From: Halocalculus aciditolerans
Lineage (GTDB): Archaea; Halobacteriota; Halobacteria; Halobacteriales; Halobacteriaceae
Length of the DNA: 64,000 nt
NCBI RefSeq assembly: GCF_014647475.1
Contig: NZ_BMPG01000007.1
Coordinates: 4,696-68,695 of the forward strand
Direction of reading: 5' to 3'
Positions 39,483 to 53,763 of this stretch are shown piece by piece. The position numbers were made by a program, and so were the translations under genes. Each line of letters starts with the position of its first letter. The stretch's first letter is position 1. Under the pieces are notes generated by a model. That model saw nothing but the letters and a program-made list of their open reading frames with translations, did no database searches and was not told the origin of the DNA.

Positions 39483-39947
39483 TTAGGCGTCGAGGCGGGC
39501 GTGGATGCGGTCGCGGTAGGGTTCGAGGGTCGCGTCGATCCAGACTTCGGCGTCGTAGGTGACGTCGAGAAGGGTTTCGGCGCGGTCGTCGTCGCCGGGG
39601 CCGAGCGCGGCGACGTCGGTTTCGAGGCGGGAGCGGAGCGCGGCGGCCTTCTCGGGTTCCGTGACGTCGCGGCGGTCGATGTCGAGGATGTGCGGGAGGT
39701 CGTCGGCGTCGTCGGGAACAGTTGGAAAGGCGGCGGGGCCGGGCGCGACGAGGACGTCGCCGTCGTGCGGGACTTCGAGGAGGCGGTAGTCCGCGGTGGC
39801 GGCGTCGACGGCGTCCTCGACGGCGGCTTCGTCGAGGTCGCGGCCGTCGCGGAACGCGAGTTCCACGAGCGCCTCGGTGAGCTCGTCGCGCGTCAGGCCG
39901 CCGAAGAGGTCGACGATGCCCGCGAGCTCGTCGTGCGTTCGCTGCAT
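39483..39947 (-). CDS. hypothetical acidic protein (154 aa)
   Basis: Clean ORF of typical haloarchaeal composition. Confidence 0.5.
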   Translation of the reverse strand: MQRTHDELAGIVDLFGGLTRDELTEALVELAFRDGRDLDEAAVEDAVDAATADYRLLEVPHDGDVLVAPGPAAFPTVPDDADDLPHILDIDRRDVTEPEKAAALRSRLETDVAALGPGDDDRAETLLDVTYDAEVWIDATLEPYRDRIHARLDA

Positions 39948-40004
39948 ACTCCCTCGAACCGGCTTCTCGCCTATGAGTCTACTGCCTGCCGTGCGAGACT
40001 CTCT

Positions 40005-41105
40005 CTACCGGTCGCGGGCGGCGGCGAGGTCGTCGCGGGCGGCGGCGACGACCGCGGCGGGGTCGAGGTCGGCGTCCGCCCACGCGGGGAGGCGGGTGTC
40101 CGCGCCGGGCGGGGCGATGGCGTCGGCGTACGCGGCCACCTGCTCGCGTTCGCCGTGTTCGTCGTGCGCGAAGTCGTTGAAGGCGGCGTCGGCGGCGTAC
40201 GCGCGGACGTGGCGCTCGGCGGCGTCGCGGTAGGCGGCGGTGAGTTCGTCGTAGTCGACGGTCGCGCCGTCCGCTTCGACGGCGTGGAGGACGGCCGCGC
40301 CGACGCCGTCGCTCATGTCCGTGAGGCCGGAGGGGCCGGAGACGGCGCGGTGGTCGTGTTCGTAGCGGCCGAGGTCGACCTGCGCCGCGGCGTCGCTGCC
40401 GGCGACGCGGTAGGCCTCCGCGAGCACGCCGACTTCGAGCCCCCAGCGCCGCCGGACGCGGACGCGTCGCGCGAGGTCGGCGGTGAGCGCGCATTCGCCG
40501 GCGAGCGCGTACCGGAACGCGTCGAGGTAGTCGACGACGGGCGCGTCCGTGACGTCGCCGAGCGCGGCGACGAGCGGTTCGTAGAAGAGCCGACAGAGCC
40601 GGCCGTAGAGCCGGTCGTTCTCCACGCGGGCGTAGTAGCCTTTCGCGAAGTCGTGCCCGCGCGTGAGCGGGAAGAGGAGTTTGCGGACGTCGCGGGCTTC
40701 GTAGGTAGTGGTGTCGGCGTCGTGGACGGCGACGAAGTCCGCGCGGTCGGCGGCGTGGCCGAGCGCGAGCCAGATGTCGCGGCCCTTCCCGCTCTCGCCG
40801 TCGAGGCCGGCGTCGGCGAGGCGGTCGGCGAGCCGCGGCCCCGTACACCAGAGGACGTCGAGCGGGAGGTCGAAGCCGTCGAGCCAGTCGGCGAACGCCG
40901 GGGCGCGTTCCGGGGACGCGCGGAGCGGGACGACGACGCGTTTCGGCTGGAGCGTTTCGAGTTCGGAGAGGACGGCTTCGGTGGCGAGCGCGGTGTACTC
41001 GCGCTCCGTCATGGGGACGACGACGGCGGCGTCGGCGACCGGGGCGTCGGGGTTCGCGCGCCCGAAGTCGTGGAGCGTCGTCACGCGCTCCTGCGTGTAA
41101 TCCAT
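40005..41105 (-). CDS. GT-A-fold glycosyltransferase-like protein (possibly glucosyl/mannosyl-3-phosphoglycerate-synthase-like)
   Basis: Opens AAVVVPMTERE, has a DxD-like VHDADT and is about 366 aa. The specific function is uncertain. Confidence 0.45.
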   Translation of the reverse strand: MDYTQERVTTLHDFGRANPDAPVADAAVVVPMTEREYTALATEAVLSELETLQPKRVVVPLRASPERAPAFADWLDGFDLPLDVLWCTGPRLADRLADAGLDGESGKGRDIWLALGHAADRADFVAVHDADTTTYEARDVRKLLFPLTRGHDFAKGYYARVENDRLYGRLCRLFYEPLVAALGDVTDAPVVDYLDAFRYALAGECALTADLARRVRVRRRWGLEVGVLAEAYRVAGSDAAAQVDLGRYEHDHRAVSGPSGLTDMSDGVGAAVLHAVEADGATVDYDELTAAYRDAAERHVRAYAADAAFNDFAHDEHGEREQVAAYADAIAPPGADTRLPAWADADLDPAAVVAAARDDLAAARDR

Positions 41106-41144
41106 ACGCGTGGCGAGGGCGTGCGCGCCGAAAAAACACGCCGG

Positions 41145-42425
41145 TTACTCGTGAGACGCGGTCGGGAGGACGCCGCCGCGGTGCGCGAGGAGGACGGTGA
41201 GGGCGACGACGGCGACGGCGACGGCGGCGACGCGGAAGATGCCGTCGTAGGAGAACCCGGCGGTGCGGAGGCCGCCGACGAGGACGCCGCCGCCGGCCTG
41301 GAAGAGCATCGTGACGGCGGAGTAGGCGGCGTAGGCGCTCGCGCGGTCGGCGTCCGGCAGGGAGTCGAGGAGGAAGGTGTCGACGGTCGGGAAGATGTGG
41401 TGGATGGCGTAGCCGACGACGACGGTGGCGGCGACGACGGCGTAGAGGCCGCGGGCGTAGGTGAAAGCGAAGAGCGAGCCGGCGAAGGCGGCGGGGACGC
41501 CGACGAGGAGGACGATGTAGGAGAGGCGGTCGGCGAGGCGGCCGGCGAACCAGAACGCGGGGATGCCGGCGGCGAACATCACGGTGAGAAGGGTGCGGGC
41601 GGTGGCGGCGTCGACGACGCGGGCGTCAGTGACGTAGGAGACGTAGAAGTTGAAGAAGCCGTTCCAGACGATGCCGGCGACGCTCATGACGAGGATGCCG
41701 GTGAGGACGAGCGGGAGGCGGCGGCGGGTCGCGCCGAGGAAGTCGCGGTCGCCGCGGCCGGCGGCGGGCATGCGGTCGGCGGCGACGGCGGCGCGCGAGG
41801 AGACCGCGAGCGCGGCAGTGCCGAGGAGGGCGGCGGCGGCGAGCAGCCAGAAGACGAGTCGCCAGTCGCCGACGCCGAGGACGACGCCGACGGCGAGCGG
41901 GGCGACGACGGCGGCGGACTGGCTCGCGGTGCCGTGGATGCCGATGACGCGGCCGACGCGGTCCGGGAAGAGCTCGCTCACGAGCGGGTTGCCGGCGATG
42001 AAGTAGACGCCGGAGGCGACGCCGACGAGGAACGCGCCGACGGCGACGGCAGTGACGCTCCCCGCCATCGCGGTGCCGGCGCTCGCGGCGGCGAGGAAGA
42101 CGCCGTCCGCGATGATGACGTGGTGGCGGTCGAAGCGCGTGAGGAGGTAGCCGGTCGGGAGGCGCGGGAGGGCGCTGCCGAGCCACGCGAGCGACGCGAT
42201 GACGCCGACGGTCGCGGCGTTCACGCCGAACGCCGTTTCGAAGGTGTCGAGGAGCGGTGCGAAGGTGATGCGGCCGAAGTTCACGAGGAAGACGACACCG
42301 CAGAGCGACCCGAACACGCGGAGTCGGCGGTCGTCGCTCTCGGTGGACTGAGACACGACCGCGAGTCGGACGGCGTCGGCCTTCAGCCTCTCGGTTCGAC
42401 ACCGCCACGAGCGTTTTACGTCCAC
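41145..42425 (-). CDS. MFS transporter
   Basis: Twelve TM segments and a 6+6 organisation. Confidence 0.85.
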   Translation of the reverse strand: MDVKRSWRCRTERLKADAVRLAVVSQSTESDDRRLRVFGSLCGVVFLVNFGRITFAPLLDTFETAFGVNAATVGVIASLAWLGSALPRLPTGYLLTRFDRHHVIIADGVFLAAASAGTAMAGSVTAVAVGAFLVGVASGVYFIAGNPLVSELFPDRVGRVIGIHGTASQSAAVVAPLAVGVVLGVGDWRLVFWLLAAAALLGTAALAVSSRAAVAADRMPAAGRGDRDFLGATRRRLPLVLTGILVMSVAGIVWNGFFNFYVSYVTDARVVDAATARTLLTVMFAAGIPAFWFAGRLADRLSYIVLLVGVPAAFAGSLFAFTYARGLYAVVAATVVVGYAIHHIFPTVDTFLLDSLPDADRASAYAAYSAVTMLFQAGGGVLVGGLRTAGFSYDGIFRVAAVAVAVVALTVLLAHRGGVLPTASHE

Positions 42426-42442
42426 TCTGCGTAGGCCGCGTC

Positions 42443-43954: not shown

Positions 43955-46768
43955 TCACCAGCCGGTCGAGCGTTCGTCGGCGTTCCCGTCGGTGTCGCCG
44001 ACGCCGCGCGGCCCGGGCGGGACGACCACGACGACGACGGTCGAGACCGAGAACGTGACCTCCTCGTTCCGGCCGACGACCTCTCGCGCGCCGTCGCCGT
44101 CCACGTCGACGCGCACGGTCTCGTTCTGCCGAACGTAGGTGAGCGAGTCGTTCCCGGGCGTGTGCGTGCGGGCGGTGACGGCGACGCGCTCGTAGCCGCC
44201 GCGGGCGGAGACCACCCAGGCGTTCGCGGTCGCGTACCAGTAGCCGGGAACGGGCGCGATGGGGAGGCCGGCGGGCAGTTGTGCGAGCCGCTGCTTGGCG
44301 GCGCGGCGCGCCGCGGCGTCGTCGAGTTTCTCGCCGAGCACGCGCTCGCCGGCGTCGGCGACGCGGTGGGCGGCTTCCCGCTTCGCCGCGTCGCCGATGC
44401 GGTTCGCGCCCTCCGCGGTGACTGCACTGAGAGCGGTCTGCGCGCTCCGTCGCGCGTCGGTGACGCGGCCGCCGGGCACGCGGCCGCGCGTCCGCCGCGC
44501 CTCGCGGAGCGCCACGCGGAGCGCGATGCGGAGCCCCGGAGCGTCCGCGCCGCGCGCCGCGGCCTCACGCGCGACCGTGGACGCGAGCGAGCCGTTCACC
44601 GCGGCGGTCGCCGTCACGGCTGGGCCATCGTACCGGGCGAACGCGGCGTCGACGGCCGCCCGACGAGCGTCCTCGGTGAGGGTTGTTCGGCGCGCGAGCG
44701 CGTCGACGAGCGGCGGCCGCAGTCGGTCGGTCGCGGCGGCGACGTCGGAGCGGAGCGCGGCGCGCCGCTCGCGCAGCGTCGCGTTACCGCGGACGCCGTC
44801 GAGCGCGCGGAGCGTGGTGACGGCGGAGGCGAGCGACGCGTCCGCGGGCGGGTCGGGAACGACGGCGTCGGCGACCGCGTCCCCGGCGTCCGCGTAGGGG
44901 ACGGTGAAGAGATTCGTGTTCCGCGTGGCGAGCGGGTAGCGGCCGTCGACGCGGCTCGTCGAGAGGTACGACGGCGTCCCTCGAACGGAGAGCACTGGGG
45001 AGTCCCCGGCAGAGGCGTTCGCGGTTCGCTCCGGTCGGGCGGTCGCGGCGGCGAGCGGCTGGTCGGCGTGAGCAGCGACGACGCGGCGCACGGCGTCGAA
45101 CCCGCCGGTTTCGCCGCGGAGACGCTCGACGACCGCGTCGAGGTAGGCGGCGCGGGCGGCGGTCGCGGCGCGCGCGTCGAGCGAGCGATACCGCGCCGGC
45201 GCGTCGACGAGCGCGGCTCGTTGCTCGGCGAGTCGGTCGGCGAGCCGACGGCGCGGATTCGCGTCGAGTCCCGCCCCGGGGGAGAGAGTCGTGGAGAGCG
45301 CCCGGGTGAGGCGGTCGTGGAGGCGCGTGACGTTCCGAACAGCCACTTTTCGGGCGTTCTCGGGGACGCTGAGGGGAACGGTCGCGGCGGTCGTGCTCGC
45401 GCCGCCGTCGGCGGCGCGGCGGGCGAGCGTGTCGACGCCGCCGCGCGCACGGACGACGGCGTTCGACGCGTCGCGGAGCAGACCGGTAGGCTGGTCGACG
45501 AGCGCTCGATCCGGCGCGCGGCCGTCGGGTGCGGCGCGGCCGACGACGGCGACGGTCACGAGGCTGGTCGTCGCGAGCGACGCGTTCCCGACTCGGCGGA
45601 CGGTCCGGACGCGTCGGTGGCGTGTCGCGAGGCGCACGAAGCCCCCGGGCGTGGCAACCGCGGGGCCGCGCTCTGCGGCCGTAACCCCGGCGCGCGCGGC
45701 GGTGGCGTTTACGCGACGGGTACTGAGTGTCGTCGCCGCGGTTTCGACGCGGATGCGGCCGCGGTAGGTGTCGCGGAAGACGCCGTCGAGGTCCTCGTCG
45801 AGGGCGAGAAACGCGCGGTCGGCGGTCGCGTTCACGTCGACGGAAACCGCCTTCTTCTCGCCAAGGAGCGTGCCGGCGGCGTCGCCGGGTAGGCCGGGTG
45901 AGGCGGGCGCGCCGCCGACAGCGCCAGCGCTCGGGCCGAGGAGGTCCTGCACGCCGGTTTCGACGGCGGCTCGGCGATACCGAGTGGTCGCGCGGGCGTC
46001 GGCGCGGCCGAGTGTCTCACGCTGGACGCCGAGAACGGCGGCGTTCGTCGTGACAGCGACGTGGCGGGTGGCGAGGACGTTCGCGACGGGCGCGCCGCCG
46101 TACTGCGCCCAGCCGCGGCCCCACGCGACGACGGTGGCGCGGGCGGTGAGGCGGCGACCGAGGCCGGGGCCGTCGAGCGGGCCGGCGTCGAGTCGCGCCG
46201 CGTAGTCGGCGACGCGGTCGTGGAGACCGAGCACGGGCGTGGCGACGGCGACGGTCACGGCGGTAGTTTCACGGGAGACGACGCGTCCGTCGCGGCGAAG
46301 CGTGAGTCGGAGGCCGGTGACGGTGACGTTCGTCCCGCCGTCGGCGCGCTCGGCGAGGTGGACGCGGCCGATGGCGCGTTCGGCGTCCGCGGGCGAGTCG
46401 ATGCCGGGGAGGGCGACGGTCGCCGTCACGTCGCCGCGGCGCGTGGTCGTGTTCGCGAGCGCGCGCCGGACGGCCGCGTAGGTCCGGAGGCGGAGGGCGT
46501 CCCGGAAGGCGTGGTCGGCGCGGAGGGCGTCGCCGTAGGGGCCGGCGGGCGCGACGACCGGGTGTGCGGCCGCCGCTCGCGCCGCGCGGGTCGCGCCGTC
46601 GGCGACGGCGAGGCGCGCGAGCACGGTGGCTTCGCGGGCGGCAGCGTCGGTGTCCGGCGTCGTGGCCTGTGGCGCGGCGAGGGAGACGTGGCTGGCGACG
46701 CCCGCGCTCGCGACGAGCAGGGCGACGCCGACGAGGGCGAGCGGGACGCGGCCGCGTTCGTCGGTCAC
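43955..46768 (-). CDS. large (937 aa) Ala/Arg/Thr-rich protein with N-terminal pilin-like hydrophobic segment; last gene of the Tad-like locus (TadG-like?)
   Basis: A GTG start overlaps the stop of the upstream pilin-like gene (GTGA). The N-terminus VTDERGRVPLALVGVALLVASAGVA is pilin-like, and the rest is low-complexity but continuous, with no internal stops over 2.8 kb. Confidence 0.5.
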   Translation of the reverse strand: MTDERGRVPLALVGVALLVASAGVASHVSLAAPQATTPDTDAAAREATVLARLAVADGATRAARAAAAHPVVAPAGPYGDALRADHAFRDALRLRTYAAVRRALANTTTRRGDVTATVALPGIDSPADAERAIGRVHLAERADGGTNVTVTGLRLTLRRDGRVVSRETTAVTVAVATPVLGLHDRVADYAARLDAGPLDGPGLGRRLTARATVVAWGRGWAQYGGAPVANVLATRHVAVTTNAAVLGVQRETLGRADARATTRYRRAAVETGVQDLLGPSAGAVGGAPASPGLPGDAAGTLLGEKKAVSVDVNATADRAFLALDEDLDGVFRDTYRGRIRVETAATTLSTRRVNATAARAGVTAAERGPAVATPGGFVRLATRHRRVRTVRRVGNASLATTSLVTVAVVGRAAPDGRAPDRALVDQPTGLLRDASNAVVRARGGVDTLARRAADGGASTTAATVPLSVPENARKVAVRNVTRLHDRLTRALSTTLSPGAGLDANPRRRLADRLAEQRAALVDAPARYRSLDARAATAARAAYLDAVVERLRGETGGFDAVRRVVAAHADQPLAAATARPERTANASAGDSPVLSVRGTPSYLSTSRVDGRYPLATRNTNLFTVPYADAGDAVADAVVPDPPADASLASAVTTLRALDGVRGNATLRERRAALRSDVAAATDRLRPPLVDALARRTTLTEDARRAAVDAAFARYDGPAVTATAAVNGSLASTVAREAAARGADAPGLRIALRVALREARRTRGRVPGGRVTDARRSAQTALSAVTAEGANRIGDAAKREAAHRVADAGERVLGEKLDDAAARRAAKQRLAQLPAGLPIAPVPGYWYATANAWVVSARGGYERVAVTARTHTPGNDSLTYVRQNETVRVDVDGDGAREVVGRNEEVTFSVSTVVVVVVPPGPRGVGDTDGNADERSTGW

Positions 46769-47193
46769 GGCGACCACGTCCGAACGACGAGGGTCGCGTC
46801 GGGCGCACCGGGGAGGGCGGCGGTGGCGGCGCGGACACGGTCGCCGTGCGGCGGCGGCCCGGCGGCGAGTACGCGCTGCCCGGTCGTGACGAGTGTAAGG
46901 TTCGCCCGCGGGACCGCCAGCCCGAGCGCGCGCTCCGCGGCGCGTGCCGCACACGCGGGCGGAGTTCGGTTGGCGGCGGCGCTGGCGAGGAGGTCGCCGA
47001 GCGGCGCGCGGACGCGGCCGGCGCGGCCGGTGCAGGAGACGTTCGCCGTCACGGGAAGAACGGCGTCGGCGACGCGGTGTGGCGACGGCGCGGGGTCACT
47101 AGGTGGCTGCGCGGCGACGAGCACGGCGATGGCAGCGGCGACGAGGAGGACGGCGAGGGCGGCGTCGAGCGGCGTGCTGACGGCGCGGCTCAC
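46765..47193 (-). CDS. pilin-like / pseudopilin-like small protein 3
   Basis: A GTG start overlaps the upstream stop (GTGA), and the N-terminal hydrophobic helix is DAALAVLLVAAAIAVLVA. Confidence 0.4.
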   Translation of the reverse strand: MSRAVSTPLDAALAVLLVAAAIAVLVAAQPPSDPAPSPHRVADAVLPVTANVSCTGRAGRVRAPLGDLLASAAANRTPPACAARAAERALGLAVPRANLTLVTTGQRVLAAGPPPHGDRVRAATAALPGAPDATLVVRTWSP

Positions 47194-47576
47194 GTCCACA
47201 CCACCACGCGGAGGCGGCCGAACGCGACCCGCCCGCCGGTGCGAACGGGGAGCGGACGCGCGGCGGCCGGCGCATCTCTCGGCGGGCGCGGCCCGACCGA
47301 CCACGCGCGGGTCGCCGCGCGGAGCGTGACGTTCAGCGAGAGACCCGCGGAGCGTTCGAGGTTCGCCAATTTCGCAGGTCGGGCGACGCCGCCCGCGGTG
47401 ATTTCGTCCGCGACGTGGTCGAGCGTGGCCGTCGGCTGCGCCGTCGCCTGTCCGGGGAGCGCGCGGCCGTAGACGGTGGCGTACGTGCCGACCGCGGCGA
47501 CGACGGCGAGGACGGCGACGAGCGCGGCGAGCGGCTCCGTCTGCGCGCTATCCGACGAGCGTCGCATCGACGTCAC
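47190..47576 (-). CDS. pilin-like / pseudopilin-like small protein 2
   Basis: N-terminus MTSMRRSSDSAQTEPLAALVAVLAVVAAVG pairs a short polar leader with a hydrophobic helix. Confidence 0.45.
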   Translation of the reverse strand: MTSMRRSSDSAQTEPLAALVAVLAVVAAVGTYATVYGRALPGQATAQPTATLDHVADEITAGGVARPAKLANLERSAGLSLNVTLRAATRAWSVGPRPPRDAPAAARPLPVRTGGRVAFGRLRVVVWT

Positions 47577-48018
47577 CCCAGGTGACGTGGCGGACGCGGA
47601 GGCGGTCGGTCGTCAGCCAGCCGCCGGCGCGGGTTCGAGCACGGGCGAGCGCTCGCTCGACGGCGTCGCGGAACGCGGCGGGCGTCTCGAAGACGTCCCG
47701 AACGTCTCGACCGGCGAGGACGGCCGCGAGCCGGCCGGACGCGGGGACGACGGGGCCGTAGCGGAGGGTGGCGGTCGCGGTGCCGCCGTCGGAGCGGAGG
47801 GAGAGCCGGGCGGGGTGGAGGCGGACGGCGTCGGCGCGGACGGGGAGCGTGCGACGCGTGGGATGGTCGCTGGCGGCGACGGCGTCGACGGCGCGGGCGA
47901 GCGCGGCGGCGTCGGGCGGCGGGGCGGTCGGAACGGCGAGAGCCGCGGCGAGGAGGACGGCCGTGACGGCGGTGAGAGCGACCCAGACGGGGAGCGTGTC
48001 GGCGGCGAGCGTCGGCAT
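47548..48018 (-). CDS. pilin-like / pseudopilin-like small protein 1
   Basis: Opens MPTLAADTLPVWVALTAVTAVLLAAALAV. This is the C-terminal part of junk track ORF 47548..49518; the real ATG is at 48018. Confidence 0.45.
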   Translation of the reverse strand: MPTLAADTLPVWVALTAVTAVLLAAALAVPTAPPPDAAALARAVDAVAASDHPTRRTLPVRADAVRLHPARLSLRSDGGTATATLRYGPVVPASGRLAAVLAGRDVRDVFETPAAFRDAVERALARARTRAGGWLTTDRLRVRHVTWGDVDATLVG

Positions 48019-48052
48019 ACGCCCGTATGGCCGCGGTATCGGGTAAAAAGGT

Positions 48053-49759
48053 TCAGACGAGGCGGCCGGTGGTGCAGAGCGTCGCGGGGAAGACGACGCT
48101 GGCGGCGAGGAGGCCGCGGCCGGCTGCGCCGGCGAGCGCGGTTCGGTCGAGCGGGCCGTCGAGGCCTGCGGCGAGCACGGGGAGGAGGGCGGCGAGCCAG
48201 AGGACGTACGCGCCGACGACGAGCGCGAGCGTGCCGACCGCGAAGGTCTCGGTGGGTGCGCCCGCGCTGGCGGCGGCGAGCGGGGTGCCGGCGGGCTGGC
48301 CGAGGCCGCGGACGCGACCGGCGAGCGCGACGGTTGCGCCGGCGATGCCGGGGGCGAAGAAGCGGCCGGTGGTGCGGAGCGTACCGGTGGTGTGGCCGAG
48401 TTCGGCGCGGAGGTCGGCGGCGAGTTCGTGGAGGCCGTGCCGGGCGTCGGCGTAGTCGCGGAGCACGCGGCCGCCGCGCGGGCCGGCGTCGGCGGCGGTG
48501 ACGAGGAGGCGTACGGTGCGAGCCACGCCGGGGAGCGCGTCGGTGGGGAGCGCGCCGTAGGGCCCCGAGACCGCGTCGGTGGGTGTGAGGGAGAGCGCGC
48601 GACGACGGGTGGCGGCGTCGGCGAAGACGTCGCCGGTCGAGCCGGGGACGGAGCCGGCGGCGGTGAGGGCGCGCTCGGGCGGGTCGCCGGCGACGAGTCG
48701 GGTGGCGGCGGCGGTGGTCGCGGCGGGGAGGCCGCGGGCGACGCGTTCGTAGCGGTCGCGTATCGCCTCGCGCGGCCGGGAGAACGCGAGGAGGCCGATG
48801 CCGAGGGCGAGGCCGACGCCGGTGACGGGGGCGGCGGTGGGGACGACGAGCCGGCAGGCGAGCGAGCCGGCAACGCCGGCGGCGAGACCGAGCGCGAGCG
48901 GACCTGCCGGAGAGTCGGGGACGTCCGGGTGGTCGGTGGGGACGCCGGGGGCGGGGAGGGCGAGGGGGCGGCGGGCGACGAGCCACGCGCTGGCGGCGGC
49001 GAGCGCGAGCGGGAGCGCGACGTCGTAGCAGAGAGCGAGCGCGCCGAGGGGAATGGTCGCGCCGGCGCTGGGGAGGACGGGGAGGACGCCGACGAGGGCG
49101 AGGGGGAGGACGACGCCGAAGGCGTAGACGCCCGAGACGGGGCCGTGGAGGGCGGCGGCGTAGTCGCCGAAGCGTTCGCGGGTGGCGCGGCGCGCGGCGG
49201 CGACGGCGGCGTCGAGGAGACGGTCGCGTTCCGCGGGCGGCGCGTCCGTCGCGGCGTCGAGGAGTGCGAGCGACCCGGCGAAGGCGGGGGAGCGGTCGGC
49301 GACGCGCTCGCGGAAGGCCCGCCAGCCCGCGACGGGGTCGCCGTGTGCGGCGGCGACGCAGCGAGTGAGTTCGCGGCCGAGCGGGCCGTCGCTCGCCGTG
49401 TCGACGGCGGCTTCGAGCGTGCCGTGGAGGGCGATTCCGAGGGTCGCGCGACAGACGAATCCGGGACCGTCACCGTCGGCGCGCGCTCGGTCGGCAGCGG
49501 CGAGGAGGCGCGGCCCACAGAGAACGGCGGCTGTCCCGCTCGCGCCGAGGAGGCAGACGACTGCGGCGAGGAGGGGTGCGAGGGGGGCGCAGGCGACGGT
49601 GAGCACCGCTGTGGCTGCGGCCGCGAGGATGGCGAGCGAGCGGAGCGTCCGACTCCCGGTCTCCCAGCCGACGCGGGCGAGCGCCGCGTCGAGTTCGCGG
49701 TCGCGGCCGGGGTCGATCGGGACGGCGGCCGCGAGCCGGCGGAAGGAACGGGAAGTCAC
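48053..49759 (-). CDS. type II secretion system F-domain membrane protein (TadC/FlaJ/PilC-like)
   Basis: Two repeats of a cytoplasmic helical domain plus TM bundle, 568 aa, with the start overlapping the ATPase stop. Confidence 0.7.
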   Translation of the reverse strand: MTSRSFRRLAAAVPIDPGRDRELDAALARVGWETGSRTLRSLAILAAAATAVLTVACAPLAPLLAAVVCLLGASGTAAVLCGPRLLAAADRARADGDGPGFVCRATLGIALHGTLEAAVDTASDGPLGRELTRCVAAAHGDPVAGWRAFRERVADRSPAFAGSLALLDAATDAPPAERDRLLDAAVAAARRATRERFGDYAAALHGPVSGVYAFGVVLPLALVGVLPVLPSAGATIPLGALALCYDVALPLALAAASAWLVARRPLALPAPGVPTDHPDVPDSPAGPLALGLAAGVAGSLACRLVVPTAAPVTGVGLALGIGLLAFSRPREAIRDRYERVARGLPAATTAAATRLVAGDPPERALTAAGSVPGSTGDVFADAATRRRALSLTPTDAVSGPYGALPTDALPGVARTVRLLVTAADAGPRGGRVLRDYADARHGLHELAADLRAELGHTTGTLRTTGRFFAPGIAGATVALAGRVRGLGQPAGTPLAAASAGAPTETFAVGTLALVVGAYVLWLAALLPVLAAGLDGPLDRTALAGAAGRGLLAASVVFPATLCTTGRLV

Positions 49760-51552
49760 GTTTCCTCCCGGAAGCGGTCGGCGCGCGCGTCGATGGCGGC
49801 GCGGACGTCGGCGTAGGTCTCGTCGGGTGCGGCGAGCGCGGCGACGGCGGCGCTCTGCCCGCGGTCGATGCGGCCCGTCGCGGCGAGCCCGGTCGGCCCG
49901 CGGGTGTAGAGTTCGGCGGCGGCGTCGGGGCCGGCGACTTCCTCGATGGTCGTGACGCGTCGCCCGTCGGGGGTGGGGGCGAGCGTGACGACGAGGTCGG
50001 TGGCGGCGAACGCGGCCGGGGTGACGCCGAGGTCGGCGACGCGGCCGCGGAGTTCCGCCGCGCCCTCGCCGTGGACGGTGCCGAGGACCGCGCCGTCGTG
50101 CGCGCCGACGCGCATCGCCTCGAAGAGCGCGGGGGCTTCCTGGCCGCGGATTTCGCCGACGGCGAGCGCGCCGTCGCCGAGGCGGAGGGCGGTGCGGACG
50201 GCGTCGGCGGGCGTGAACGCGCCGCCGGGGTCGGCGCGGAGGCCCTGGGCGTCGCGGTCGGCGTCGCGGAGCGCGGCGAGCGGGAGTTCGGGCGTGTCCT
50301 CGATGGCGACGAGGCGCGTGGACGGCGGGAGCTCCCAGCAGAGCGCGCCGAGGAGGGTGGTCTTCCCCGCGCCGCGGGGGCCGGCGAGGAGGCAGGCCGC
50401 GCCGCGCTCGACGGCGAGGGAGAGAAAGCCCGCGGCGGCGGGGGTGACGGTTCCGTTGGCGACGAGGGCGGTGAGCCGCCAGGGGTCGCTGTCGGCGGCG
50501 CGGACGGCGAACGCGGGGCCGTCGCTGACGGGGTCGGTGACGGCGGCGGCGCGGACGCGGTCGCGGGTGCCGACGCCGGTCGCGGTGGCGTCGAGCGTCG
50601 GGCTGGCGGCGGAGAGCGGGCGACCGCTCGTCGCGCGGAGGCGGGAGGCGAGGGCGTCTGCGCCCGCGGCGGAGAGAACGGCGTTCGTGGTCATCGTCTC
50701 GCCGTCGACGACGACGCGGAGCGGGGTGTCGTCGGCGGGGGCGGTGGCGTAGACGTCCGTCACGCGGGAGTCGGCGAAGAGGTCGTCGAGCACGCCGAAC
50801 CCGCGGGTGTGTTTCCGGAGGACGGCGGCGAGGTCGGCGGTCGGGTCGTCGCGGCCGGCGACGCGGCGGACGGCGGCGGTCGCGGCGCGCGCCCCGCCGA
50901 GTGCGCCGTCGGCGAGCCGGGCGGCGGCGGCGTCGAGCGTCGCGTAGTCGTCGGCGTCGAAGGCGGCTTCGCGGGGCGTGACGTGGTAGACGGGGAGAGG
51001 GTCGGCGTCGTAGACGCGGACGGTCGCGCCGGCCGTGTCGCGGGTGTCGCGGAGGCGGGCGTCGGCCGGCGGGTCGGGGTCGAGGCGGGCGTGAGCGAGC
51101 GTCGGGCCGTCGAACGTCCGGACCCCGTCGTAGCCGGGGTGGGCGTCGGCGACGGCTGCGAGTGCGGTTTCGGCGGCGATGCGGGCGACGGGGCCGGCGC
51201 GGCCGGCGGCGGCGCTGGCGGCGGAGAGGGGGTCGGTGGCGGCGCGGTCGGCGAGGCGGTCGTCGTGGACGGCGGCGCGTTCGGCGAACCGGCCGGCGGC
51301 GAGGAGGAGCGCGGCGGTCGCCGCGTCGTAGCGGCTGTCGACGCCGGGGCGGCGGACGACGACGCGGTCGGCGTCGGCGCGGCGGAGCGCGCGGACGGCG
51401 GTGGCGCGGCAGGCCGGGGCGTCGGCGAGGCGGCCGTCGCCTGGGCAGTCGGCGGCGTCGAGTCGGAGCGTCCCGGCGTCGACCGTGGCATCGCAGGCGC
51501 AGGCGGCAGTGCCGTCGGGTCGCCCGCGGAGTCCACCGAGTCGTTCGAGCAT
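49756..51552 (-). CDS. type II/IV secretion ATPase (TadA/CpaF/FlaI/PilB family)
   Basis: Walker A LLAGPRGAGKTTLLGAL, the Asp/Glu box LVAIEDTPEL, GEIRGQEA and His box GTVHGEG. Trimmed to ATG 51552. The N-terminus carries an unusual Cys cluster (CACDATVDAGTLRLDAADCPGDGRLADAPAC). Confidence 0.85.
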   Translation of the reverse strand: MLERLGGLRGRPDGTAACACDATVDAGTLRLDAADCPGDGRLADAPACRATAVRALRRADADRVVVRRPGVDSRYDAATAALLLAAGRFAERAAVHDDRLADRAATDPLSAASAAAGRAGPVARIAAETALAAVADAHPGYDGVRTFDGPTLAHARLDPDPPADARLRDTRDTAGATVRVYDADPLPVYHVTPREAAFDADDYATLDAAAARLADGALGGARAATAAVRRVAGRDDPTADLAAVLRKHTRGFGVLDDLFADSRVTDVYATAPADDTPLRVVVDGETMTTNAVLSAAGADALASRLRATSGRPLSAASPTLDATATGVGTRDRVRAAAVTDPVSDGPAFAVRAADSDPWRLTALVANGTVTPAAAGFLSLAVERGAACLLAGPRGAGKTTLLGALCWELPPSTRLVAIEDTPELPLAALRDADRDAQGLRADPGGAFTPADAVRTALRLGDGALAVGEIRGQEAPALFEAMRVGAHDGAVLGTVHGEGAAELRGRVADLGVTPAAFAATDLVVTLAPTPDGRRVTTIEEVAGPDAAAELYTRGPTGLAATGRIDRGQSAAVAALAAPDETYADVRAAIDARADRFREET

Positions 51553-51574
51553 GCGGGTGGGTCGCCGCGTACTC

Positions 51575-52048
51575 CTACTTAGAGTCTCGCGCGACGCGGA
51601 CCATCGACCGATTCGCCGACCGGACGTAGCGGAGCGCGAGCCGGGCGCGTTCGCCGCTCTCGACGGTGAGTCGACGGCCGGCGGCATCGGTCGCGAGCGG
51701 GAGTCGGGTTCGCGTCGCGTGCGTCCGGCCGTTCACGCGGTAGCCGACCCGCGAGCGGTTCGCGCGGCCGACGTCGGCCGCTGGCGGCGGGTCGAGGAAG
51801 ACCGAGACGCGCGGGAACGTGAGCGAGGGGGGCGGGATACGAACGGCGAGACGCCGGACCGCGCCGGGGGCGTCGGGCGGCGTCGGGTCGCTCCGCTCGA
51901 CGAGCGCTCCGACGGCGTCGAGGAGTCGCGCCGTCTCCGTCGCGCCGACCTGCGCGCCGCGGTCGGTGCGCGCGGCGTCGAGCGCGGGCGTCGTGGCAGC
52001 CAGGAGCGCGGCGGCGAGCACGACGCCGACGACGACTCGGACGATCAC
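51575..52048 (-). CDS. membrane-anchored protein (N-terminal TM helix), second gene of the Tad-like operon
   Basis: MIVRVVVGVVLAAALLAATTPAL is followed by a 130-aa extracytoplasmic region. Confidence 0.45.
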   Translation of the reverse strand: MIVRVVVGVVLAAALLAATTPALDAARTDRGAQVGATETARLLDAVGALVERSDPTPPDAPGAVRRLAVRIPPPSLTFPRVSVFLDPPPAADVGRANRSRVGYRVNGRTHATRTRLPLATDAAGRRLTVESGERARLALRYVRSANRSMVRVARDSK

Positions 52049-52575
52049 AGGCGCGCCCGGAGCCGCGCGAGGAGGCCGGGCGCGCTCGCGCGTGACTCAG
52101 CGGCGTCACGGTCGAACGCGCCGCGGTCGAACCCACTACGTTCGAGGGCGTCGCGTCCGGGTTCGAGTGCATCCTCGGATCCGGTTTGAGCCGCGTCGTC
52201 GGGGCGGTTTTGGGGTGTGTCGTCCGGTGAGCCGCGGGGTGTTCGCGCGGGGCCCGGGCCGCCGTTCGGGACCGGGTCCGCGTCGGCTTCGAGGCGGTCG
52301 ACGGCGGCGAGGGCGGCGTCGGCGCGGCGCTCGACGGCGTCGTTGACGGTGTCGAGTTCGCCGGCGAACCCGCGCACCGCCTGGAGGTCGGCGTCGAGTC
52401 TATCGAGTCGGGCTTCGACGTCGTCGAGGCGGGCTTCGAGCGCGCCGGTGTCAGGGCCGGATGTCGCGAGCAGCGCGTCAGCGTCGGTATCGGCGGCGTC
52501 AGCGGCTGCGTCGTGGCCAGTGGCGCGCCGTTCGAGGGCGCGGACGCGGGCGGCGAGCGTTTCGGTGTCGGGCAC
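52045..52575 (-). CDS. coiled-coil acidic protein, first gene of the Tad-like operon
   Basis: Heptad-like Asp/Ala/Leu-rich repeats, with the stop overlapping the next gene's start. Confidence 0.45.
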   Translation of the reverse strand: MPDTETLAARVRALERRATGHDAAADAADTDADALLATSGPDTGALEARLDDVEARLDRLDADLQAVRGFAGELDTVNDAVERRADAALAAVDRLEADADPVPNGGPGPARTPRGSPDDTPQNRPDDAAQTGSEDALEPGRDALERSGFDRGAFDRDAAESRASAPGLLARLRARL

Positions 52576-52683
52576 GCGGTTGGCTGGCCGCGCGATACTA
52601 TGTGAACGTTCGGACGGGGCGGTGGGCTAGTCGTCGTTGAAGCCTCCCGAACGTTGAAGGGACAAGAACGTGACAAACTGCGT

Positions 52684-53763
52684 ATGAAGGCAGCCGTCGT
52701 CGGTGTCGGGCAGGCGGGCGGAAAGCTCGCACAGGCGCTCACAGAGTACGACTCCCGGACGGGATTCGACGCCGTCGAGGGCGCGCTCGCGGTGAACACG
52801 GCCCGACAGGACCTCGAAGGCCTCGACCTCCCGACAGTGCTCGTGGGGCAAGAGCGCGTGGCGGGGAACGGCGTCGGCGGCGACAACGAGCTCGGCGCGT
52901 CGGTGATGCAGGCCGACGCGCCGATGGTGCTCGACGAACTCGACGGGATCGTCCGGTCGAGCACGGAAGCCATCTTCGTGGCGGCAGGGCTGGGCGGGGG
53001 GACGGGGTCGGGCGGCGCGCCCGTGCTCGCCCGCCAGCTCTCCCGCGTCTACGACGCGCCGGTCTACGTGCTCGGCGTGCTCCCCGGGAAGGACGAGGGG
53101 GCGCTCTACCAGGCGAACGCCGGGCGGTCGCTGAAGACGGTGTCGCGGGAGGCAGACGCGGTGCTCCTCGTGGACAACGACGCGTGGCGGGAAGCGGGTG
53201 AGAGCGTCGGGGACGCCTACGCGGCCATCAACGAGCGCGTCGCGAAGCGCGTCGGCCTCCTGCTGGCGTCCGGTGAGGCCGTGCAGGGAGTCGGCGAGTC
53301 CGTCGTCGACTCCTCCGAGGTCATCAACACGCTCCGGAAGGGCGGGCTGGCGGTGCTCGGGTTCGCGGACGCACCGGCCGCGGCGGACGCGGGAGAGAAC
53401 GTGAACGTCATCACGTCGACGGCGCGGAAAGCCCTTCTCACGGGCACGAGCGTGCCGAACGTCGTCGACGCGGACGCGGCGCTGGTGGTCGTCGCGGGCG
53501 ACACCGACCGGCTGTCGCGGAAGGGCGTAGAGCGCGCTCGCCAGTGGGTGCAAGAGCAGACCGGGTCGATGGAGGTACGCGGCGGCGACTTCCCGCTCGA
53601 CGGCGAGAAGCTCGCGGTGCTCGTCCTGCTCGCGGGCGTCACGCGAAACGACCACATCCAGTCGTTCGTGGACCGCGCGCGGGACGCCGCCGAGGCGGAC
53701 GCGGAGGACGCGCCCGACCCGGCGGCGGCGTTCGAGAACGACGAGCTGGACGGGCTCTTCTAA
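52684..53763 (+). CDS. cetZ: tubulin/FtsZ-superfamily GTPase, CetZ-like
   Basis: Tubulin signature GGGTGSGGAPVLA and the N-terminal nucleotide loop VGVGQAGGK. Trimmed to ATG 52684; the track start at 52654 is a TTG. Confidence 0.85.
   Translation: MKAAVVGVGQAGGKLAQALTEYDSRTGFDAVEGALAVNTARQDLEGLDLPTVLVGQERVAGNGVGGDNELGASVMQADAPMVLDELDGIVRSSTEAIFVAAGLGGGTGSGGAPVLARQLSRVYDAPVYVLGVLPGKDEGALYQANAGRSLKTVSREADAVLLVDNDAWREAGESVGDAYAAINERVAKRVGLLLASGEAVQGVGESVVDSSEVINTLRKGGLAVLGFADAPAAADAGENVNVITSTARKALLTGTSVPNVVDADAALVVVAGDTDRLSRKGVERARQWVQEQTGSMEVRGGDFPLDGEKLAVLVLLAGVTRNDHIQSFVDRARDAAEADAEDAPDPAAAFENDELDGLF

Follow-up and report, generated by a model that had tools for sequence, protein, structure and literature searches.

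A DUF7286 protein with a prepilin-type N-terminus closes the pilB2/pilC2-type operon beside cetZ in Halocalculus aciditolerans

The haloarchaeal locus described here ends in a gene for a 937-residue protein with a pilin-like N-terminus, and it raises the question of whether so large a protein is a subunit built by the filament machine encoded with it, a fixed part of that machine or a passenger in its operon. The locus lies in a 64,000-nucleotide stretch of the Halocalculus aciditolerans genome (contig NZ_BMPG01000007.1, positions 4,696 to 68,695 of the forward strand; hereafter the window, whose own numbering is used throughout), and the gene, which encodes a DUF7286 family protein, occupies positions 43955-46768 of the minus strand. 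By its features the system corresponds to subclade 4F of Makarova et al. 2016 (PMC4858521), and Brown & Duggin 2023 described it as a pilB2/pilC2 regulon next to cetZ2 that includes "one predicted surface protein" (PMC9856176). We consider it very likely that DUF7286 is an extracellular component of this PilB2/PilC2 machine, and the reading that we favor, which we regard as probable, is that it is a giant pilin-like member of the set of proteins that the machine assembles.

The gene is real and already catalogued as a DUF7286 family protein. A single open frame of 937 codons and a stop (a 938-codon open reading frame, ORF) fills 43955-46768 on the minus strand, inside a longer open stretch of the same strand at 43955-46954. 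The original prediction, which had been made from the letters alone, described a continuous 2.8-kb ORF at these coordinates; they hold, and the strand is the minus strand, a plus-strand reading of 43955-46768 having been discarded because stops interrupt it. The overlap with the preceding stop that it reported is also present, as the GTG start (46768-46766) shares the bases GTGA with the TGA of the upstream DUF7284 gene. An alternative GTG nine bases upstream (46777) would give a protein beginning MVAVTDERG, which the N-termini of homologues fit equally well. The frame is right, given its G+C (GC) fractions of 0.80, 0.62 and 0.90 at the three codon positions and the conservation of the protein, at 35-67% identity, in hundreds of haloarchaea, and an NCBI entry, "DUF7286 family protein [Halocalculus aciditolerans]", is 100% identical with the same 937-residue start. 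The surrounding window is archaeal and very GC-rich (66-79%), and its haloarchaeal genes include one for TFB and one for CetZ. The Pfam model PF23957 (DUF7286) aligns with residues 3-937 over model positions 2-1000 of 1000 with E 2.4e-243 and 811.3 bits against a cut-off of 27; NCBIfam has no model for the protein.

The evidence for a pilin-like nature begins at the N-terminus, which reads M/V-TDERG-RVPLALVGVALLVASAGVA. A short polar leader with the putative prepilin peptidase site (M-T-D-E-R-G, with predicted cleavage before the following R; 46748-46768, minus strand) precedes the hydrophobic segment VPLALVGVALLVASAGVASHV (46685-46747, minus strand), the candidate H-domain and sole transmembrane helix. 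The leader counts six residues (nine if translation starts at 46777), and the hydrophobic stretch, residues 8-28, is the only one in the protein: in the Kyte-Doolittle profile, 19-residue windows exceed 1.6 only where they start at residues 6-15, and AlphaFold places a helix at residues 10-28. Archaeal class III signal peptides carry Gly, Ala or Ser at position -1 and a charged residue at -2, followed by an H-domain (PMC4371748). The DUF7286 N-terminus has all three of these published features of a PibD motif, with Gly at -1, Arg at -2 and the H-domain, in agreement with its earlier description as pilin-like.

These residues are conserved across the family, for which column counts refer to an alignment of 103 homologues and genome counts to 70 independent genomes (70 loci with enough upstream sequence). 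Among the homologues, position -2 is Arg in 100, position -1 is Gly in 54, Ala in 47 and Thr in 2, and position +1 is Arg in all 103. The stretch as a whole reads D(86)-x-R(100)-(G/A/T)-R(103)-V(97)-P(103)-F(101)-A(103)-L(101)-V-G(96)-V-(L/V)-L-L-V-G, in which P9 and A11 never vary and L12, G14 and L18 hardly ever do. In the genome set, R-V-P-F is preceded by RG in 33 and by RA in 32, and position -1 is Gly in 33, Ala in 35, Val in 1 and Thr in 1. A near-invariant R-(G/A)-R-V-P-F-A-L-V-G would be expected of a segment recognized by a peptidase and platform, or lying packed in a filament core, and not of a plain signal anchor. The Pro at +3 recalls the R-A-V-S-P of archaeal pilins. Pfam Pilin_N and class III signal models returned nothing from the first 72-75 residues at E<=10, DUF7286 itself being the only match. 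Two operon partners also look like classical prepilin-peptidase substrates: in loci where the motif was detected, DUF7285 starts ...R-G-Q-V-E-P or R-A-Q-T-E-P, and DUF7284 starts ...R-A-(I/V)-S-T-V-L-D.

The second line of evidence is the company that the gene keeps. From its first gene to DUF7286, the operon on the minus strand comprises DUF7310, a cytoplasmic coiled-coil protein (52045-52575; PF23991, E 7.1e-21); DUF7311, with an N-terminal hydrophobic helix (51575-52048; PF23993, E 1.2e-31); a PilB-type secretion ATPase of the VirB11/TadA family (49756-51552; Pfam T2SSE, E 2.7e-21; NCBIfam TadA-family, E 1.1e-38); a 568-residue polytopic membrane protein with several hydrophobic segments at the position of the PilC/TadC platform (48053-49759); DUF7283, whose N-terminal hydrophobic helix is without a K/R-G/A site (47548-48018; PF23954, E 3.3e-42); and two pilin-like proteins, DUF7285 (47190-47576; PF23956, E 1.1e-26), with a predicted site between SA and QTEPLAALV that reads RGQ or RAQ in homologues, and DUF7284 (46765-47196; PF23955, E 2.7e-6), with a predicted site between SRA and VSTPLD. 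A tubulin-like cetZ ORF diverges from the operon on the plus strand (52654-53763, with a TTG start at 52654). When the 70 loci were searched with tblastn, relatives of the ATPase were found in 68, of the platform protein in 69, of DUF7283 in 70, and of DUF7285 and DUF7310 in 65 each, with a CetZ relative no more than 9 kb upstream in 49; the short, divergent DUF7311 and DUF7284 queries are under-detected by this method, so that their counts (26/70 and 8/70) do not measure absence, and both families were found by Pfam in the two homologous loci L001 and L002. In these same two loci the cetZ position is filled by a protein with PF00091 Tubulin and PF21011 CetZ_C, and in Haloplanus rubicundus and Haladaptatus salinisoli the gene order is identical to that of the window.

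By gene content, the locus has the published 4F, or pilB2-pilC2-cetZ2, features with a platform of no detectable T2SSF similarity: a VirB11/PilB-family ATPase with a Cys-rich N-terminus, the DUF7310 coiled coil and the divergent cetZ. The ATPase begins MLERLGGLRGRPDGTAACACDATVDAGTLRLDAADCPGDGRLADAPAC... (51400-51552, minus strand), a Cys-rich extension of the form CxC...C...C (CAC...C...C) whose C-x-C...C pattern recurs in L001 and L002, and such a Cys-rich N-terminus has been described as a hallmark of subclade 4F ATPases (PMC4858521). DUF7310 matches, by description, the coiled-coil protein arCOG07564 of 4F loci. The protein at 48053-49759, which has no T2SSF or other Pfam match at E<=10 and no meaningful sequence relative in the PDB, would be a very divergent platform family, its platform role being taken from the published accounts (PMC4858521, PMC9856176). 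A predicted large S-layer-like or adhesin-like protein has been reported in 4F loci (PMC4858521; PMC9856176; Sivabalasarma & Albers 2026, bioRxiv 10.64898/2026.04.22.720090), and DUF7286 is most likely this protein, arCOG02945, to judge from its size and position, because the locus encodes no other large protein outside its core.

That the gene terminates the operon, as had been proposed, is borne out by a 34-nucleotide spacer, containing CCCTTTTAC, between its stop and the ATG (43920) of a downstream DUF5791 gene, which is followed by an epimerase gene. The full spacer reads AAGGCCCTTTTACTTCCGCCGCCTACGCCCGGGT, and its T-run/TTTTAC element, about 25 nucleotides upstream of the DUF5791 ATG, could combine a terminator and a TATA box, which would fit DUF7286 as the last gene of the pilus operon. 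A scan for bacterial-type promoters and terminators near the 3' end found none, as expected for an archaeon. DUF5791 lies downstream of DUF7286 in 69 of 78 loci. At the other end of the operon, the interval between cetZ and DUF7310 (52576-52653) is only 78 bp, DUF7310 starts with GTG at 52575, and a TATA-like CATAGTAT lies about 25 nucleotides upstream of that start, a placement that suggests a leaderless transcript and possibly a shared regulation of cetZ and the pilus operon. Separately, DUF7284 counts 143 residues from its Pfam-aligned start (179 in the longest ORF) against 277-287 in homologues and aligns to model positions 1-125 of 278 only, so that in the Halocalculus genome this pilin-like protein appears to lack its C-terminal half.

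The family to which the protein belongs is widespread. A word-index search returned 344 homologues, all with PF23957, those listed being 931-1159 residues long, and full-length alignments of homologues to the window protein gave 36-67% identity. An exhaustive hidden Markov model search of 1.84 billion cluster representatives yielded 563 clusters at a threshold of E<=1e-3, of which 391 remained at E<=1e-30, and almost every one of the 150 top clusters has a length of about 1000 residues and aligns with the profile over its full extent. When one genome was scanned for each species, 307 genomes had a relative, and the best 80 of these are all Halobacteria apart from one metagenome-assembled genome (MAG), with Haloplanus, Halobellus, Haloarcula, Halorubrum, Haladaptatus, Halosimplex and Halodesulfurarchaeum among the genera. 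The original prediction held that an archaeal counterpart of this size would be unusual, an idea that is wrong because the databases already list this protein and its family, and the locus type has been described three times (2016, 2023 and 2026). The one exceptional MAG is labelled "uncultured cyanobacterium", and its relative (32% identity over residues 3-859) is encoded on a 176-kb contig, CAWGFK010000010.1 (our locus L069); the contig is probably a mis-binned or mislabelled haloarchaeal one.

Beyond the membrane helix, the protein is predicted to be largely folded. The AlphaFold2 model, built on the 103-sequence alignment, has a mean predicted local distance difference test score (pLDDT) of 83.4, with 596 residues at or above 90, and a predicted template modelling score of 0.55. 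A weakly pilin-like alpha/beta domain comes first (residues 38-176; 46241-46657, minus strand), in which helices 38-68 and 84-105 lie on a five-stranded sheet. The helical domain that follows (residues 179-277; 45938-46234) is the most conserved of the protein, at 0.77-0.79 per column, with the motifs GPGLGRRLTAR...NV(V/L)ANRHV and with R185, G202, R218, V231, N242 and Q249 invariant. After a disordered loop (280-305), a central region (residues 308-828; 44285-45847) is divided by its secondary structure and pLDDT into helix-plus-sheet modules (308-645) and a long helical bundle (646-828). A C-terminal beta-sandwich (residues 847-916; 44021-44230), with strands at a pLDDT of about 90-98, carries an invariant loop by column counts, D888-x-D890-G-D892-G893-x-x-E896 (44153-44179), and is followed by the conserved motif PPG..GVGDxDG(N/D)ADERSxGW (43958-44020), the last part of which (residues 922-937, 43958-44002) ends in W937 in 102 of the 103 homologues. 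We take both the D888-E896 loop and the GVGDxDG motif to resemble Ca2+ sites of the DxDxDG type. A profile search of the PDB with DUF7286 found nothing, the best E being 0.5.

Two properties of the ectodomain stand out. Eleven N-x-S/T sequons are formed from only 22 Asn, against 2.7 +/- 1.5 in shuffled sequences, of which 0/2000 reach 11; most lie in the central region, 308-828, N725-G-S is kept in 101 of the 103 homologues, and the family median is 12 sequons from 26 Asn. The protein also has a net charge of +34 (family median +31, range -26 to +76), and the same sign is seen in each operon protein that has an N-terminal hydrophobic helix, five in all with DUF7286 (+5 to +34). The cytoplasmic neighbors carry a net negative charge (-13 to -26), the normal state in haloarchaea, where basic extracellular proteins are uncommon.

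The composition of the protein, which had been read as a sign of low complexity, does not set it apart from its neighbors. It is rich in Ala, Arg, Thr, Val and Asp, as predicted (A 20.9, R 13.2, V 11.3, T 9.2, G 8.8 and D 7.0%), with a combined share of these six residues of 70.4% against 70.2% in the ATPase. The mean entropy over 30 residues is 3.12 bits, against 3.11 in the neighboring ATPase and 3.07 in the platform protein, and the supposed AT(A/V)R-type repeats dissolved on comparison, since hhalign between seven sub-domains detected no internal repeats (all probabilities <6%). Tandem Repeats Finder reported only trivial repeats of 2-3 copies in the DNA (scores 44-67). A low-complexity or repeat protein was thus discarded on the entropy comparison, these two repeat analyses and the well-ordered AlphaFold model, and the skewed composition is a trait of the whole 75-80% GC operon and not of DUF7286 alone. 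The C-terminal end, ...STVVVVVVPPGPRGVGDTDGNADERSTGW, does contain the (V)6-PPGP segment that had been noted; it is a conserved beta-strand plus motif and not a simple-sequence tail, with V916, P917, G922, G924, G928 and E932 invariant in the 103 sequences. As for the operon itself, its eight genes (43955-52575) have 75-80% GC and the flanking DUF5791, epimerase, cetZ, DHQase and TFB genes 67.5-72%, with a smaller excess in Haloplanus (0.73-0.77 vs 0.69) and Haladaptatus. The excess could come from amino-acid composition (Ala/Arg/Gly/Pro) or from a mobile-element origin, as suggested by Brown & Duggin (PMC9856176).

From these features we derive a route by which DUF7286 could reach its place. 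The N-terminal signal and H-domain would insert the protein into the membrane and leave about 900 residues outside the cell, as suggested by the single N-terminal hydrophobic helix and the sequon-enriched ectodomain, and PibD would cut after R-(G/A), as the motif suggests. The PilB2 ATPase and the platform protein would extract the helix from the membrane together with DUF7283, DUF7285 and DUF7284, and the four proteins could then form an initiation or tip complex analogous to the minor-pilin complexes GspH-I-J-K and PilV-W-X. DUF7286, by far the largest subunit, would cap this complex, perhaps serving as an adhesin or cap, and would expose an ectodomain that is basic, glycosylated and probably able to bind Ca2+ through its beta-sandwich. 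The parts of this route differ in strength. That DUF7286 is a genuine PibD-processed pilin-like subunit seems likely from its N-terminus, and its location at the tip as an adhesin or cap, drawn by analogy, is tentative. The broader tip or assembly-factor idea of the original prediction is reasonable because a class III-type N-terminus is combined with a type IV pilus-like operon context.

Several observations weigh against assembly as a pilin-like subunit. The invariant Arg at +1 is unlike the characterized sites RAVS, DAVS, KGQV, RGQ and RAQI (PMC4371748). In the AlphaFold model, a low-confidence (pLDDT <50), Pro-containing stretch, residues 26-36, separates the membrane helix from the one that follows, where classical pilins have a continuous alpha-1. 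The operon does not encode a major pilin, so a filament may not form, and the equation of DUF7286 with arCOG02945 is drawn from size and position. The literature that we searched holds no transcript, protein, processing or localization data for any member of the family.

The atypical +1 Arg, the flexible linker and the missing major pilin would all suit a protein that is not a pilin but an uncleaved, N-terminally anchored scaffold, pseudo-periplasmic or in contact with the S-layer, which fixes PilB2/PilC2 in the envelope. Its role would be like that of ArlF/ArlG or of bacterial bitopic alignment proteins, it would fit the "S-layer-like protein" label of Makarova et al., and we judge it rather unlikely, if the most serious of the alternatives. 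One N-terminal transmembrane helix followed by the linker, a long helix and large folded domains is a plausible scaffold architecture; the strict co-occurrence with ATPase and platform would be equally expected of a stator or scaffold; and the net basic ectodomain could bind an acidic S-layer. Such an anchor, however, has difficulty in accounting for the strict alternation of Gly and Ala at -1 next to Arg at -2 and for the near-invariant sequence of the helix. Matches to pilin folds also recur for the first domain, while PilN/PilO/GspL/GspM and ArlF/G-like proteins are absent from the top 60, and the C-terminal anchor of the kind seen in haloarchaeal S-layer proteins is lacking.

More speculatively, the PilB2/PilC2-cetZ2 locus might build not an adhesive pilus but a short pseudopilus-like or envelope-spanning organelle in which the basic, glycosylated DUF7286 subunit of roughly 1000 residues, with an ectodomain unmatched by solved structures, is the working part. 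We hold this to be distinctly improbable. DUF7286 could then serve as a secretion cap or piston, in contact between cells, or as a surface anchor whose place is set by CetZ2; if true, archaeal type IV filament machines would gain a functional class not seen before, and a tubulin-like cytoskeleton would be tied directly to a surface organelle.

Less probable still, and in our view very unlikely, is a surface glycoprotein or adhesin whose only tie to PilB2/PilC2 is the common transcription unit, the machine playing no part in its export or use. The absence of any known relative of the fold would be compatible with such a passenger, and a conserved neighborhood does not always mean a shared function, since DUF5791 and the epimerase are kept beside cetZ2 even in the absence of the pilus genes (PMC9856176). 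Against it stand the near-constant presence of the ATPase (68), platform (69) and DUF7283 (70) in the 70 loci with DUF7286, the overlap of the DUF7286 start codon with the stop of the preceding pilin-like gene and an N-terminal architecture that is the same as in other proteins of the operon.

Finally, that the frame is wrong and merely a long open stretch born of 77% GC, as the abundance of long but spurious ORFs in the other frames (44162-45892, plus strand, 576 residues, and 46061-47329, plus strand, 422 residues, among them) might invite one to think, is already refuted for practical purposes by the GC content at third against second codon positions, the full-length 811-bit Pfam match, the conservation of the protein in many genera, where indels fall only in loops, and the confident AlphaFold model. 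Very long ORFs of this kind in the window include those at 39501-42434 (plus), 44162-45892 (plus), 46061-47329 (plus) and 47548-49518 (minus), of 977, 576, 422 and 656 residues, respectively. They lie antisense to or out of frame with real genes and have Arg/Gly/Asp- or Pro/Ser/Arg-rich nonsense translations. They are products of the high GC, and a reader who ignores frame could take them for genes.

In the literature, neither DUF7286, DUF7283, DUF7284, DUF7285, DUF7310 or DUF7311 nor the guessed Haloferax volcanii locus tags HVO_0748-0753 were named in any paper that we found; a 2026 mBio paper on CetZ1/CetZ2 does not discuss the pilus genes, and an H. volcanii mating transcriptome paper has nothing on the pilB2/pilC2 locus. 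As a discovery, the present analysis adds little. Its value lies in pointing to a widespread machine (307 species-representative genomes) that is consistently paired with the tubulin-like CetZ2, and to its largest component, which combines a prepilin-type N-terminus kept across the family with heavy predicted glycosylation, a net positive charge that is unusual for a haloarchaeal protein and folds without a solved relative. DUF7286 would offer experiments a handle on what the PilB2/PilC2 system does.

How does this protein compare with those of known systems? With other 4F loci, the window shares the operon order and the neighbors, namely cetZ, DUF7310, the Cys-rich PilB ATPase and the downstream DUF5791 and epimerase; the differences are minor, in that its DUF7286 is at the short end of the range (937 residues versus about 1000-1040) and its DUF7284 neighbor is half-length. 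A haloarchaeal S-layer glycoprotein was considered and rejected, as the protein has no C-terminal hydrophobic segment and no match to PGF-CTERM or S-layer models in Pfam or NCBIfam, and ends ...DERSTGW. ArlF and ArlG are N-terminally anchored, pseudo-periplasmic stator proteins of the archaellum that contact the S-layer. Like them, DUF7286 is an archaeal type IV filament accessory whose single hydrophobic helix lies at the N-terminus and whose folded domain is extracytoplasmic, but ArlF and ArlG are only about 150 residues long and show no sequence or detected structural similarity, and DUF7286 has the conserved Gly or Ala at -1.

The likeness to TadG and PilY1, large accessory proteins that are also encoded with a pilus machine and have a presumed tip, adhesion or assembly function, is one of kind. 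TadG shares the N-terminal pilin-like hydrophobic segment, and the acidic DxDxDG-like loops of DUF7286 recall the Ca2+ sites of PilY1. Kinship by sequence with PilY1 or with TadG, which the original prediction had named for comparison, was not found, with no TadE/TadG, vWA, PilY1/Neisseria_PilC or DUF2341 match in Pfam or NCBIfam at E<=0.01, and neither was a structural match; the model has no beta-propeller. A further parallel is GspK (XcpX), the largest minor pseudopilin, which caps the tip of the type II secretion pseudopilus together with GspI and GspJ. DUF7286 differs from GspK in having no sequence similarity, a size three to four times larger, about 750 extra residues in folds without a PDB match, and an archaeal R-(G/A) site before Arg in place of the bacterial Gly before Phe with E5. 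By analogy, DUF7286 may nevertheless work like GspK, and should it prove to be a GspK-like cap or a tip adhesin, no giant minor pilin would have been defined in archaea before it.

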